Below, piece after piece: positions 12,281-64,000 of a DNA stretch of 64,000 bases. A model generated the notes under the pieces. The model was not told the DNA's origin. It made no database searches and worked only from the letters and a program-made list of their open reading frames with translations. Where the stretch lies: sequence record PP445229.1; one strand, given 5' to 3'. Both the position numbers and the translations under genes were made by a program. Numbering within the stretch: position 1 is the stretch's first letter; every line of letters starts with the position of its first letter. The stretch comes from Escherichia phage EC.W2-6.

Positions 12281-12289
12281 TAATGTATA
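12281..12289 (+). promoter_or_regulatory. TAATGTATA element (candidate phage-sigma-dependent promoter)
   Basis: Exact 9-mer about 37 nt upstream of the 12326 start codon. Confidence 0.45.
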
Positions 12290-18845: not shown

Positions 18846-19323
18846 AGAACCTGTAGTACATAAAGATTCTATCAGAGATCAATATAATGAGATGTTAAAG
18901 AAACAAGCTGATTCTAATCTTCGTTATCAGAGGATAGTAGAACAATCTAACTTTAAAGGTTTACTTGAATGGTAACTTATATCCTTTACTTTTTAGCTTT
19001 CTTAGGAATAGTCTTTTTATCTATTCTTATTGAATTTGGTTTAAGTAAGTTAGTTAATTATTTAGGTAATAAGTAATTAATATTCTTTTAAATAGAGAAT
19101 CAAAGTCCCTAGGAGTCCCTACAACCTAAATCAAGGATTCCTTAATTCTCTATTTTTATCTCGCAGGTGGCTCCTGCCCTTCGGTACTTGCAAGGGATTC
19201 TGTGAATTGCCCAATATACAAGCCTGCAATAACTTTATCAGCTATACAATATATACATTACTAGTGTGATATATCTACTACCAAAGATACTTATATTATA
19301 TAGTACTCTTATCGGTATAAGCG

Positions 19324-56805: not shown

Positions 56806-57069
56806 ATGGCTATCAAAGAAATTAAGTTATCTAATGGCTTTTCTTGTTTTGTTGGTGGAAGCTCTATCCTGTTTAATACACTTGATGGTCAGATAACGTT
56901 ACCTGTTATCACTTTTTGCAGGATGGAATATCAGCCTCTTAAAGATTGGCTAGCCTTTGCTGATTTTGAAATTACCCGTGAAGACTTCAAATCAATCTAT
57001 ATTGACGGTGATTTATCACTGGCTAACCTGCTCAATCATGGACTAATTAAGGGTGATATTAATGGGTAA
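56806..57069 (+). CDS. hypothetical protein (87 aa)
   Basis: ORF with GGGAG upstream. Confidence 0.4.
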   Translation: MAIKEIKLSNGFSCFVGGSSILFNTLDGQITLPVITFCRMEYQPLKDWLAFADFEITREDFKSIYIDGDLSLANLLNHGLIKGDING

Positions 57070-57408: not shown

Positions 57409-57786
57409 GTGATTATTATCATGGGTATTATCAAATTTGTAGTAAAAGTATTCGTGGGCTTCTTCCTTGTCGTTCTCCTGCTGGGTGTGCTCCTATCGGC
57501 TATGGGTAGCGTTAAGGCTGCAACATTCTCCCCTGCTACGGTGGAAGGTTTACAGTGCACCTATTTGATAGAAAATTATGATACCGGTAAAAAGTCACCT
57601 AAAGTTATTATTTTGCATGTAAATGATTTCGATCATGTGCAATCAGATAGTAAAACTATTCTACTGGTAAATGAAACTACTGGTAAACAAATCACGGTCG
57701 ATCACTTGATGCGCTCATCGTTAACGCTCTTTGATGAGTCCATGAATGAAATGGCATCCGGTAATGGTCAATGTGTAAATCCATAG
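57409..57786 (+). CDS. membrane-anchored/secreted protein (125 aa)
   Basis: N-terminal hydrophobic segment (IIKFVVKVFVGFFLVVLLLGVLLSAMG); two Cys in extracytoplasmic part; terminator downstream. Confidence 0.45.
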   Translation: MIIIMGIIKFVVKVFVGFFLVVLLLGVLLSAMGSVKAATFSPATVEGLQCTYLIENYDTGKKSPKVIILHVNDFDHVQSDSKTILLVNETTGKQITVDHLMRSSLTLFDESMNEMASGNGQCVNP

Positions 57787-58090: not shown

Positions 58091-58118
58091 TTGACATGAT
58101 TTTCCTTTATAGTAATAT
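58091..58118 (+). promoter_or_regulatory. sigma70-like early promoter (TTGACA-N16-TAATAT)
   Basis: Consensus -35, 16-nt spacer, good -10; preceded by an A-rich UP-like tract. Confidence 0.55.
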
Positions 58119-58296: not shown

Positions 58297-58325
58297 TTGA
58301 CACCGAAAACAGCCTGATTCATAAT
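58297..58325 (+). promoter_or_regulatory. sigma70-like early promoter (TTGACA-N17-CATAAT)
   Basis: Consensus -35 with 17-nt spacer; near-duplicate of the promoter at 58600. Confidence 0.6.
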
Positions 58326-58599: not shown

Positions 58600-58628
58600 T
58601 TGACAGCGAAAACAACATGATTCATAAT
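58600..58628 (+). promoter_or_regulatory. sigma70-like early promoter (TTGACA-N17-CATAAT)
   Basis: Same architecture and nearly identical spacer to the promoter at 58297. Confidence 0.6.
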
Positions 58629-60779: not shown

Positions 60780-61000
60780 TATTCAGTAATAATTTTGGCA
60801 AGTGTCCTATTTGTGAGAAACATCGCAGCACGGGAAACCATCGCAAATGTAGTAAGATATTACAGCGCCAACGTGATAACAACCATTGGGATACTGTACA
60901 CGCTAATCAGCGTAAAGAAGAAGTTAAAGAAATGGCTGTTAAAGCATCCTTTGCCCAATCCACCCGTATTGAACACATCCAAAGGTATCAAGCATTATGA
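60776..61000 (+). CDS. small zinc-binding protein (74 aa)
   Basis: CPICEKH ... HRKC pattern. Confidence 0.4.
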   Translation: MIFSNNFGKCPICEKHRSTGNHRKCSKILQRQRDNNHWDTVHANQRKEEVKEMAVKASFAQSTRIEHIQRYQAL

Positions 61001-61206
61001 TCACTAATATTTCAGAGTTTAAGAAAGCGCCTTCTCGTCTGTTAGGTCGTCGTGTTGTGTATCTTTATAGCAATAAAGGTAAAGCTACAACTGGACGAAT
61101 TACAACAGTAAGTAGTGTTACTAAAGGTTTGCTCAAGTTATGTGTAGCTATGGACGATGGTACAATCCTGCTACGCAGTTGGAAGTCATTTAGTTTACTC
61201 GATTAA
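60997..61206 (+). CDS. hypothetical protein (69 aa)
   Basis: ATGA overlap with upstream gene. Confidence 0.4.
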   Translation: MITNISEFKKAPSRLLGRRVVYLYSNKGKATTGRITTVSSVTKGLLKLCVAMDDGTILLRSWKSFSLLD

Positions 61207-61889: not shown

Positions 61890-62040
61890 TACTATGACGC
61901 TCTTTCTGTCGCGTCGTGCCCTCTCCCCATTTGAAGCTTCCGCATAGCCGCCTTTGAGCGGCTTTTTGCGTTGCTGTAAGTGCATTTGCGAGTGTATTTA
62001 TAGCAACGGTCATGTGTTGCTTTCAGGTTTGCCCCGGCTA

Positions 62041-62067
62041 CGGCTGGGGCTTTTTTATGCCCGTAAA
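62041..62067 (+). terminator. rho-independent terminator
   Basis: GCCCCGGC-TACG-GCTGGGGC hairpin followed by TTTTTTA. Confidence 0.65.
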
Positions 62068-62105
62068 ACAGGAGGTATCAAGTTCTGATAACAACGGCAC
62101 AGCTA

Positions 62106-62495
62106 ATGTTGACATTGACTATTTATTATGAGGCAGGGAATCAGCCAACCGCATGTAAGGCTTTAGTTGCGGATACCGTGATAAATAGAATGGCCCAACG
62201 AAAACTGACCGCTGAACAGGTGATAAGACAAAAGAACCAGTTTGAGTGGATTCCGGTACTATTAAAACAGGAGAAACCTTATAAACGTTATGTAAAGCTG
62301 ATTCGTGATAAAAATCCGATGACTAAGCAAGCCATTGGAGAAAGCGAGCGGCTGGCTAAACGTGCCCTTAAGAAGAATTATGTTCCGCTGTACAGTGGGA
62401 CTTACTTTCAGAGTAAGAGCGAAGGGGTGCCAAAATGGTATGCCAATCCTATGTATTGTGGTGATTTAGTATTTGATAATAGCTCTAGGGAATAA
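62106..62495 (+). CDS. cell-wall hydrolase, SleB-like (Hydrolase_2 family)
   Basis: TIYYEAGNQP ... KALVADTVINRM and GTYFQSKSEGVPKWYANPMYCGDLVF parallel the conserved blocks of SleB-type hydrolases as I recall them. Confidence 0.55.
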   Translation: MLTLTIYYEAGNQPTACKALVADTVINRMAQRKLTAEQVIRQKNQFEWIPVLLKQEKPYKRYVKLIRDKNPMTKQAIGESERLAKRALKKNYVPLYSGTYFQSKSEGVPKWYANPMYCGDLVFDNSSRE

Positions 62496-62694
62496 TCACT
62501 AGTGCCAGATTTGACAAACTAAATTCCTTTATAAACCAACCACTTAGTAAATTTATTGAAAAAGATGGTAGTATTCTGGGACTATGGGTAATGCTCTGTA
62601 TATAGACCCTTTGAAAATTTCTTAGAAAATAAGTTTACTAAATATAACTTACTTAAATAATATTACTTTTAATCTCTGATAAAGGGTAAATAAT

Positions 62695-62991
62695 ATGACT
62701 TTAGAAGTATATAAATTCCTTTTTGTAAGCTGTTTAACTATCAGCGTTCTAGGATTTATTGTTCTAAGAAACAAAGCAGCAAGCTGGGAAAGAATGTATA
62801 AATCCCTAGTCCGAGTGGATGAGATGTATAATGAGAAGGTTAAAGTAACACTCAACGATCTTATTATGCAAGTTGAGGACAGAAACAAGCGTCTTCAGAA
62901 CCTCAATCACGAAGTGTTACGCCTTGCTCGTGCTAATGAAGACTTGCGAATAGCTATTGCTAAGCAGCAGGAGATTAACAGTGATAATTGA
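62695..62991 (+). CDS. membrane protein with N-terminal TM helix and coiled coil (98 aa)
   Basis: FLFVSCLTISVLGFIVL hydrophobic segment followed by heptad-rich helix. Confidence 0.45.
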   Translation: MTLEVYKFLFVSCLTISVLGFIVLRNKAASWERMYKSLVRVDEMYNEKVKVTLNDLIMQVEDRNKRLQNLNHEVLRLARANEDLRIAIAKQQEINSDN

Positions 62992-63217
62992 TATGAACAA
63001 CGCCCCAAAGGTTTTAACTCTTGGGGATTTAGAATCAGGTGATGTATTCCAGTTCCCTCTGGATGGGGAGAATTACTATATGTTATCTAGTCAGAAGTTT
63101 GGGACAACAGACAAGAGAAGTTATATCAATCTTTCCTGTGGCGTTATTGCAACGGATGAAGGTAATACAGTCATCAAGAAGGTCAGCAATGCTCGGCTTA
63201 CCAATAAGGTGGATTAA
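62981..63217 (+). CDS. small protein, paralog A of a tandem quartet
   Basis: Shares LGDLxxGDVFQ ... Y ... N-L motif with the next three ORFs; GTG start 6 nt after AGGAGA. Confidence 0.5.
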   Translation: MIIDMNNAPKVLTLGDLESGDVFQFPLDGENYYMLSSQKFGTTDKRSYINLSCGVIATDEGNTVIKKVSNARLTNKVD

Positions 63218-63219
63218 CA

Positions 63220-63456
63220 GTGAAAGTTAATATTAAATCCGATCGTACAATGCTTCGCTTAAACAACATGAAGCCGGGCGTTCTATTTGAGCGTAAAGAA
63301 TCCCTTTACATTAGAACCGACACATTGTACGCAGACAATTATGTCAACTGTGTTGATGTGGTAACTGGAAAGCTCATTCCTTTTAAACGGGATGAAGTCT
63401 GCCAAGTACGCAGCGATCTCCACATAACTAACATAGAGGCTAAAGATGAAGATTGA
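63220..63456 (+). CDS. small protein, paralog B of a tandem quartet
   Basis: Same length class and motif spacing; GTG start. Confidence 0.45.
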   Translation: MKVNIKSDRTMLRLNNMKPGVLFERKESLYIRTDTLYADNYVNCVDVVTGKLIPFKRDEVCQVRSDLHITNIEAKDED

Positions 63457-63703
63457 TTTGAAGGTAAATGAACCATCTTTGTGTGTTGGTGATCTCAAAC
63501 TTGGAGATGTATTCCAAATCAGGGAAACACGAGCAGATTTCTACATGGTTGTTCAGCTATTTACCTCACAGATTGAAGAGACCAAGCCTTCTGATGGGGG
63601 TTGTGTCGTCCTTAGTCTGACAAATAAGCAAGTCCTTAAGCTTAGCTCGAAAAGCAAGGTTGTTCTTCTTCATGATGTTGTTATTACTAACAAGGGCAAG
63701 TAG
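63446..63703 (+). CDS. small protein, paralog C of a tandem quartet
   Basis: VGDLKLGDVFQIRE ... YMVV core. Confidence 0.5.
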   Translation: MKIDLKVNEPSLCVGDLKLGDVFQIRETRADFYMVVQLFTSQIEETKPSDGGCVVLSLTNKQVLKLSSKSKVVLLHDVVITNKGK

Positions 63704-63922
63704 ATGGAAATTAAAGTAGTTGATTATCCTAAATATGCAAATGCAGAAGATGTTAAAGGTGGTGATGTTTTCTCTTACGACAGACGTTTCTGGCTGATGT
63801 TAGAAGATAAAACTCCCGATGGTTTATGTAAGGCCGCCAATCTGAACAGCGGTTCTGTTGAAGTCTTCGGTCTATCAACCACTGTTATGCCACGCCCTGA
63901 TCTGTGTTTATCCCAAAAGTAA
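63704..63922 (+). CDS. small protein, paralog D of a tandem quartet
   Basis: DVKGGDVFSYD core. Confidence 0.5.
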   Translation: MEIKVVDYPKYANAEDVKGGDVFSYDRRFWLMLEDKTPDGLCKAANLNSGSVEVFGLSTTVMPRPDLCLSQK

Positions 63923-64000
63923 CATCGACTTATAGCCCTTGTGTTTATCAGAGGGCTATGTGAGGGTGTTCCTCATTAACTTATTAATTCAGGCATATGC

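Follow-up and report, generated by a model that had tools for sequence, protein, structure and literature searches.

Small barrel-like proteins encoded in tandem in the early region of a Kuravirus, and their relatives in other phages

What are the four small genes that follow one another at the end of the 64,000-nt stretch of phage DNA analysed here (the window), and what might they do for the phage? All four ORFs are annotated as hypothetical proteins. The first-pass annotation, made from the sequence, had proposed that they are tandem paralogs with a common GDVF core, members of an expanding family of small beta-rich proteins of the early region, with host interaction or anti-defence as a plausible role. 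The last 2 kb of the window are 100% identical to positions 62000-64000 of Escherichia phage EC.W8-1 (PQ030848.1), a 76.4-kb Kuravirus of the subfamily Gordonclarkvirinae. Matches were found in 99 related phage records, including SU10 at 96.5% identity, and orthologs of the four genes are kept across the 99.

The array, its homology and its history

The genes, here called A to D, lie on the plus strand and are tightly packed. A (62981-63217; 78 aa; XDJ04183, SU10 gp114) begins with GTG, and AGGAG lies 7 nt 5' of it. B (63220-63456; 78 aa; XDJ04184, SU10 gp113) follows after a gap of 2 nt and is overlapped for 11 nt by C (63446-63703; 85 aa; XDJ04185, SU10 gp112), whose loop between strands 3 and 4 is longer; D (63704-63922; 72 aa; XDJ04186, SU10 gp111) adjoins C with a gap of 0 nt. 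A Shine-Dalgarno-like sequence is found 6-8 nt 5' of each gene. The GDVF core is present in A (LGDLESGDVFQF), C (VGDLKLGDVFQI) and D (DVKGGDVFSY), but B has PGVLF in place of the literal motif. Similarly, the N-L pair that had been noted downstream of the core is the second motif of the family, VNLxTG. A and D have it intact; in C it has degenerated to LSLTN, and in B it has become VDVVTG. At the N-terminus, MIIDMN of A aligns opposite MKIDLK of C.

Are the four proteins homologous? Smith-Waterman scores compared with 2000 shuffles give z values of 7.0 for A-C, 4.3 for A-D, 4.2 for C-D and 3.8 for B-C, with A-B and B-D at chance level. Profile comparisons supply further links. A and C match phrog_9955 (4.6e-27 and 1.6e-36, respectively) and, weakly, phrog_7832 and phrog_6570; D matches phrog_6570 (2.2e-32); and B matches phrog_16423 (1.4e-48), phrog_6570 (3.6e-8) and phrog_7832 (1.7e-5). 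Because B also matches the group of D, and because A and C have phrog_9955 in common, all four are homologous despite the chance-level scores of A-B and B-D. Homology that is detectable on proper alignment, on which the proposal of a four-gene family had been staked, is thus found in both the shuffle tests and the profile links.

All ORFs of the complete genome (the window plus locus L001) were searched with phmmer and then with an iterated HMM. The HMM built from A-D and a further copy, E, found by phmmer, matched each of its input copies at E <= 2e-29 and recruited three more. The copies outside the window entered at E-values from 2.9e-9 to 5e-6, after which all eight scored E <= 1e-24, and within-genome profile E-values were as low as 1e-34. 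The fifth to eighth copies are on the plus strand past the end of the window, at 66359-66580, 67864-68109, 68112-68360 and 68825-69067 of PQ030848.1 (10360-10581, 11865-12110, 12113-12361 and 12826-13068 in L001 numbering), and the scan of the whole genome found no members besides the eight. The proposed count of four tandem paralogs is therefore correct for the window, but the genome has twice as many. We considered whether gp79 of phiEco32, an early protein that binds RNA polymerase, might also be a member; the genome-wide HMM matches were the eight copies only. The view that the second copy is the more diverged did not survive. On the HMM of the wide family described below, A-D score 48-67 bits, and B, at 67 bits, is level with the top-scoring copies. 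A and C are the derived pair, and B is no outlier.

How did the array arise? The DNA of the paralogs is for the most part too diverged for alignment. The exception is a 25-nt direct repeat at the gene junctions (GATTAACAGTGA..., plus strand): copy 1 (62973-62997) spans the start codon of A, copy 2 (63212-63236; 84% identity to copy 1) spans the stop codon of A and the start codon of B, and a weaker copy 3 (63438-63462; 68% identity to copy 1) spans the start codon of C. The spacings, 239 and 226 nt, each equal one gene length. Since the junction repeats are one gene length apart, we conclude that A-D arose by old in-register tandem duplication.

Comparison with five other Kuraviruses (SU10, KM01, 172-1, MN05 and SkaterBoy/Bas90) shows that the array varies among them. 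The A-D cluster varies from 3 to 5 genes: MN05 is without A, and KM01, 172-1 and SkaterBoy have an additional 70-aa member between C and D. The A alleles of 172-1 and SkaterBoy are divergent, that of SkaterBoy being very different, and SU10 and others carry further members, such as gp107-like and gp098-like genes. In the compared loci each genome has 8-10 copies, out of a pool of at least 12 lineages; 172-1, whose locus is cut at the genome end, is left out of this count. The term 'expanding' is thus apt, as gene number and content vary among Kuraviruses and the junction repeat marks in-register duplication. The DNA between the arrays is a hotspot where these phages gain and lose genes, and in MN05 and SkaterBoy a tRNA-Arg gene lies between the paralog clusters (L011 10963-11038 and L012 11810-11882, respectively).

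What kind of selection has acted on the genes? Nei-Gojobori dN/dS, the comparison suggested at the first pass, lies at 0.01-0.2 for close orthologs, which differ at many synonymous sites, and at 0.25-0.45 for divergent allelic classes. The value for A against SU10 is 0.05, and C, which has two allelic classes, ranges from 0.06 to 0.33. Values so far below 1 indicate functional genes under mostly purifying rather than diversifying selection, with occasional allele replacement. Within ortholog groups, the loops between strands 3 and 4 and strands 4 and 5 are the most variable parts, and the N-terminal MKI strand and the paralog-specific C-terminal tail are the most conserved.

Predicted fold and a large phage family

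AlphaFold2 models were made for B and D. With an alignment of 49 sequences, D is predicted to be five-stranded and all-beta (pLDDT 87, pTM 0.72), and B to have the same architecture (pLDDT 84). The models of these two show a stand-alone, five-stranded SH3-like small beta-barrel, which is the predicted form of each of A-D, at 72-85 aa; the expectation of small beta-rich proteins is well matched. The nearest PDB folds include FeoA and the SH3 domains of DtxR/IdeR. A Foldseek search of predicted viral structures with the barrel found other small phage proteins, among them Kuravirus paralogs from other lineages and uncharacterised proteins of about 70 aa from phage N4 (gp21), the podoviruses EP335, ZC08, PaP3 and MP2, Proteus phage Myduc, Erwinia phage Cronus and others. 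The positions conserved across the family are turn glycines and residues that, judged from strand periodicity, resemble core hydrophobics (G-[DE]-V-F, YYM, VNLxTG and a late V). These conserved positions look structural, and the loops and tails look lineage-specific.

How widely is the family distributed? When 1.84 billion representative proteins were searched exhaustively with the HMM, 1386 clusters (about 1,400) came up at E <= 1e-3, mostly proteins of 66-87 aa that start with MKI. Among the best 147 newly listed matches of that search, 126 are 66-90 aa long and mostly start with MKI or MKV, and 14 (about 10%) are 131-200 aa long, those inspected being two-domain fusions. Three of the best 150 (P0122, P0124 and P0235) were rejected as spurious; they are unrelated giant repeat proteins whose scores are summed over 5-9 repeats. 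The family consensus reads MKI..K....v.L.dlkpGdvF....dyYmkTd......cVNL.tGel......kV.pv.a.lvi. The family HMM finds N4 gp21 at 1.5e-18, in addition to the Foldseek match of this protein to the model of D, and 114 of 118 diverse members match phrog_6570. The family covers at least nine PHROGs (6570, 7431, 7832, 8365, 16423, 9955, 12612, 34455 and 10911), all labelled 'unknown function', and the PHROGs database keeps these groups unlinked. For stand-alone phage members the median pI is 5.1, and 68% fall below 6.

Could such similarities be due to chance among short ORFs of AT-rich DNA, through low-complexity sequence, some of the ORFs not being genes at all? The chance-level scores of A-B and B-D and the three spurious matches among the best 150 would be expected from such a process. 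The PHROG matches, the iterated HMM and the dN/dS values refute it, however, and we give it next to no credence. The independent PHROG models cross-match, the within-genome profile values and the recruitment of the extra copies are far from chance, the low dN/dS values are accompanied by many synonymous changes, the predicted folds of B and D are confident and concordant, and orthologs are found across the 99 records.

Tandem arrays of the family are not confined to Kuraviruses. A temperate siphovirus-like element has 3-5 adjacent copies, the number differing between related contigs; a 172-kb phage has at least 3; a Gram-positive-type phage with a CHAP endolysin has 3; and an SPbeta-like phage has 5-6 family domains, including one fused pair. 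In an unrelated phage contig (L014 311-1017 and 1008-1739), three tandem members lie directly 5' of a gene for a protein with a metallo-beta-lactamase fold and a faint Pfam match to Apyc1 (anti-Pycsar). The Kuravirus arrays are one lineage-specific expansion of a huge pan-phage family and no novelty of Kuraviruses.

Pfam, NCBIfam, PADLOC and the PDB sequences gave no match for A-D or the 118 diverse relatives, and PADLOC in particular gave nothing at E <= 1 for A-D and six relatives. Literature searches on the early paralogs of Kuravirus/phiEco32, N4 gp21, the member PHROGs and anti-defence links turned up nothing on any member. Simpler searches recover little of the family. In tblastn searches of a phage collection the consensus had one match, P0207 had none and N4 gp21 found near-identical N4-like phages only; the method is too insensitive for divergent proteins of 70 aa. 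The broad family alignment is without a conserved stretch of 7-10 columns, and a word-indexed homolog search with it returned 11 proteins only. A search of bacterial genomes with protein P0131 confirmed no related locus. We regard A-D as part of a new family with clear limits, made up of small beta-barrel accessory proteins from the early regions of phages; it stands out chiefly because it is large and is missing from curated databases.

Cellular relatives of the barrel do exist, in another setting. The SprT-like zinc metalloprotease P0247, from Tenacibaculum, carries five repeats of the barrel in its C-terminal part, and its relatives in Bacteroidota (P0272-P0284, for example P0280 of Aureibacter) are chromosomal, with 1-5 repeats each. 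The repeats match the HMM with domain E-values of 1e-8 to 1e-5 and are homologous to the phage family in the core barrel, but they are cellular and fused to a protease, are without the MKI strand, and have a median pI of 9.6 versus 5.1 for the phage members. The repeat domain of these proteases appears to be undescribed, and it probably binds DNA.

Early expression and proposed role

When would the proteins be made? In SU10, the homologous block (CDS 69-125) is of the early class and is transcribed by the host sigma-70 RNA polymerase (PMC4281155, PMC8948821), with three sigma-70 promoters in the spacer between genes 120 and 121 (PMC4281155). The block runs opposite to the structural genes, and its mostly unknown genes are described as likely to serve host takeover (PMC4281155, PMC8948821). 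In the window, a 1.7-kb non-coding spacer contains three near-consensus sigma-70 matches on the plus strand (TTGACA, 16-17 nt, then TAATAT or CATAAT) at 58091-58118, 58297-58325 and 58600-58628. They are the counterparts of early promoters known from SU10 and phiEco32, and are likely to be the early promoters that feed the gene block of the array. A terminator-like GC hairpin with a T-run (62031-62050, plus strand) stands between the promoters and the block of the array, and may attenuate read-through.

Sites for the phage sigma factor lie elsewhere. The middle/late promoter motif of the phiEco32 gp36 type, TAATGTATA, has five exact matches in the window, at 12281, 19252, 19324, 29503 and 46333, and none in the 56-76 kb region. 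A near match, cAATGTATA at 8112-8120, has the upstream context ttggtagtagatat in common with the site at 19252 and is probably a sixth phage-sigma promoter. Another, gAATGTATA at 62792-62800, 180 nt 5' of A, has one mismatch and no flanking context in common with the real sites; it is probably due to chance. The early-region location proposed for the array thus agrees with the maps of phiEco32 and SU10 (PMC4281155, PMC8948821), with the three upstream promoter-like sites and with the lack of an exact phage-sigma motif nearby. Synteny with these phages and the promoter-like sites suggest that A-D are expressed early.

Several neighbors of the array merit comment. The gene at 62106-62495 (plus strand) encodes a 129-aa protein with a match to Pfam Hydrolase_2 (SleB-type cell-wall hydrolase; E 1.7e-7), and lies inside the early block, distant from the lysis and structural genes. 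The gene immediately preceding A (62695-62991, plus strand; 98 aa) is called 'DNA helicase' in GenBank. Because there is no Pfam match, and because the sequence seemingly has a hydrophobic stretch at the N-terminus and then a coiled coil, this label is probably erroneous. Two further labels of the block, 'DNA polymerase B region' (56806-57069) and 'terminase' (57421-57786), both on short genes, look doubtful on size alone. A 69-aa early ORF at 60997-61206 (plus strand; ...GRRVVYLYSNKGKATTGRITTV...) is KOW/SH3-like by eye, and its E-value of 4.6 with the family HMM amounts to no match.

Might the proteins be parts of the virion? Small SH3-like and Ig-like domains are common virion decorations and often decorate capsids, so that a minor virion or decoration protein is a natural thought for a barrel of this size. 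It is nevertheless very improbable for A-D. Their genes are in an early-class block opposite to the structural genes (PMC8948821, PMC4281155), and mass spectrometry of phage preparations, which detected 34 proteins, found none of the SU10 orthologs gp96-98, 102, 107 and 111-114.

What, then, might the proteins do? The reading that we prefer, and to which we would give an even chance, is that each copy is an early binder with a single domain and a macromolecular target of its own, in most cases probably a host protein, and that it redirects or disarms the cell. The copies would be made early, from promoters of the host RNA polymerase, and each would use its variable loops and a C-terminal tail peculiar to it to bind a different protein of the host or of a competing element. 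Binding would block or redirect the target, in a form of counter-defence or of host takeover. One robust scaffold would carry all the diversified binders of the array, and duplication and the swapping of alleles between phages would adjust the coverage of targets. In keeping with such binders, the genes behave as accessory genes, with differences in presence and absence and with divergent alleles, there are precedents among stand-alone SH3-like protein binders, and the phage members are mostly acidic. The tandem arrays in other phages, the early class of the block and the pattern of conservation inside ortholog groups also speak for it. Other observations count against it. Among the eight copies, whose pI values run from 4.9 to 9.2, C, E, F and G are basic or near-neutral to basic (7.9-9.2), and the selection seen is purifying, not the strong diversifying signal that one would expect of an arms-race protein.

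The basic copies bring up the main rival, in which the proteins bind nucleic acids, as small barrels of KOW, Tudor, Sso7d or LSm type do, and tune early transcription, translation or mRNA stability. [quoted passage not shown] As the median pI of the phage members is 5.1, versus 9.6 for the SprT-fused repeats, the majority of phage copies do not have the make-up of a nucleic-acid binder. We consider this rival unlikely.

Do the paralogs instead work together? Translationally coupled neighbors might co-assemble into homo- or hetero-oligomers, such as dimers or Sm-like rings, and so form one multi-subunit particle, an arrangement compatible with either class of ligand. The adjoining or overlapping start and stop codons would favor equimolar synthesis; about 10% of the best 150 relatives are natural fusions of two domains, and one such fusion lies inside an array; and the conserved N- and C-terminal segments have a pLDDT of about 60 in the monomer, as might be expected of strands that pair between subunits. 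The copy sets differ between close phages, as in MN05 and in the three phages with the extra gene between C and D, and this variation is hard to reconcile with a fixed hetero-complex. The single copy detected in the first 30 kb of N4, the part scanned, also argues against it. We think co-assembly improbable.

If the copies are separate binders, the question of their targets follows. A host-interaction or anti-defence role, as proposed at the first pass, is plausible. Characterised anti-defence proteins (anti-CRISPR, anti-restriction, anti-CBASS/Thoeris/Pycsar and similar) gave no sequence or structural match, and the faint Apyc1-like neighbor in the unrelated contig is the sole, weak contextual link to anti-defence. 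In a bolder version, the arrays are a repertoire: each copy would neutralise its own immune effector or abortive-infection toxin of the host, much as the structurally similar VapX antitoxin acts, and duplication, fusion and allele exchange would keep re-tuning the set. This version is quite unlikely to be right; if it were true, the family of about 1,400 clusters would be among the largest unrecognised classes of counter-defence proteins.

Why should such proteins be of interest? Small unannotated early genes make up much of the 'dark matter' of phages. Here at least nine unlinked PHROGs, N4 gp21, 8-10 genes per Kuravirus and the repeat of SprT-like proteases are joined in one barrel family that is missing from Pfam and NCBIfam. 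Annotators gain a family to define, and experimenters gain eight paralogs, in a group of therapeutic-type E. coli phages, with natural variants in presence and absence. If the copies prove to be target-specific binders, they would be a rich source of small binding scaffolds and of factors for host takeover or anti-defence; should they have no measurable activity, the family would be another well-delimited domain of unknown function.

Comparison with known systems

How do A-D relate to small barrels already described? The Sm/LSm proteins, such as Hfq, have an alpha-helix before the five-stranded barrel and form rings, and these features were not found for A-D. Nor were the signatures of KOW, Tudor and chromo-like domains (the KOW glycine motif, the Tudor aromatic cage), or a Pfam match to them. 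By the tests run, A-D are outside the Sm/LSm, KOW and Tudor families. Stand-alone or modular SH3-like protein binders are among the nearest known systems and include the precedents cited above: the VapX antitoxin, FeoA, HspQ, and the Tudor domains of CarD and of the UvrD C-terminus, which bind the beta subunit of RNA polymerase.

[quoted passage not shown] These, like the A-D family, are paralogous, non-essential early proteins of phages (PMC12152347). Both groups are predicted to form a bent, five-stranded antiparallel barrel with PDB neighbors that include FeoA and the SH3 domains of DtxR/IdeR, and in this respect A-D conform to the T4 family. The T4 proteins, however, have an N-terminal domain of about 80-90 aa, a linker and a C-terminal domain (GoF is 141 aa and MotB.1 is 119 aa), are not in tandem and are found in Tevenvirinae only, whereas the present family is single-domain, 66-87 aa long, often in tandem and spread over many phage groups. 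GoF and MotB.1 score about 0 bits with the HMM and have hhalign probabilities of 0.2-0.3%. Membership of A-D in the GoF/MotB.1 family was rejected at the sequence level; given the lack of profile similarity, the other domain architecture and the T4 members not being in tandem, we place A-D outside it. A match to the N-terminus of T4 Pin (E 0.33) was dismissed as weak.

The family to which A-D do belong is that of N4 gp21 and the nine PHROGs. The relationship is seen in the similarity of whole-protein profiles, and size, MKI N-terminus and motifs are alike. Each of A-D is a single domain with the M-K-I start and the family motifs, with motif variants in B and C, and the models of B and D have the five-stranded SH3-like barrel predicted for the family. 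The difference is one of number: one copy was detected in the first 30 kb of N4, the part scanned, and eight are present in the Kuravirus studied here.
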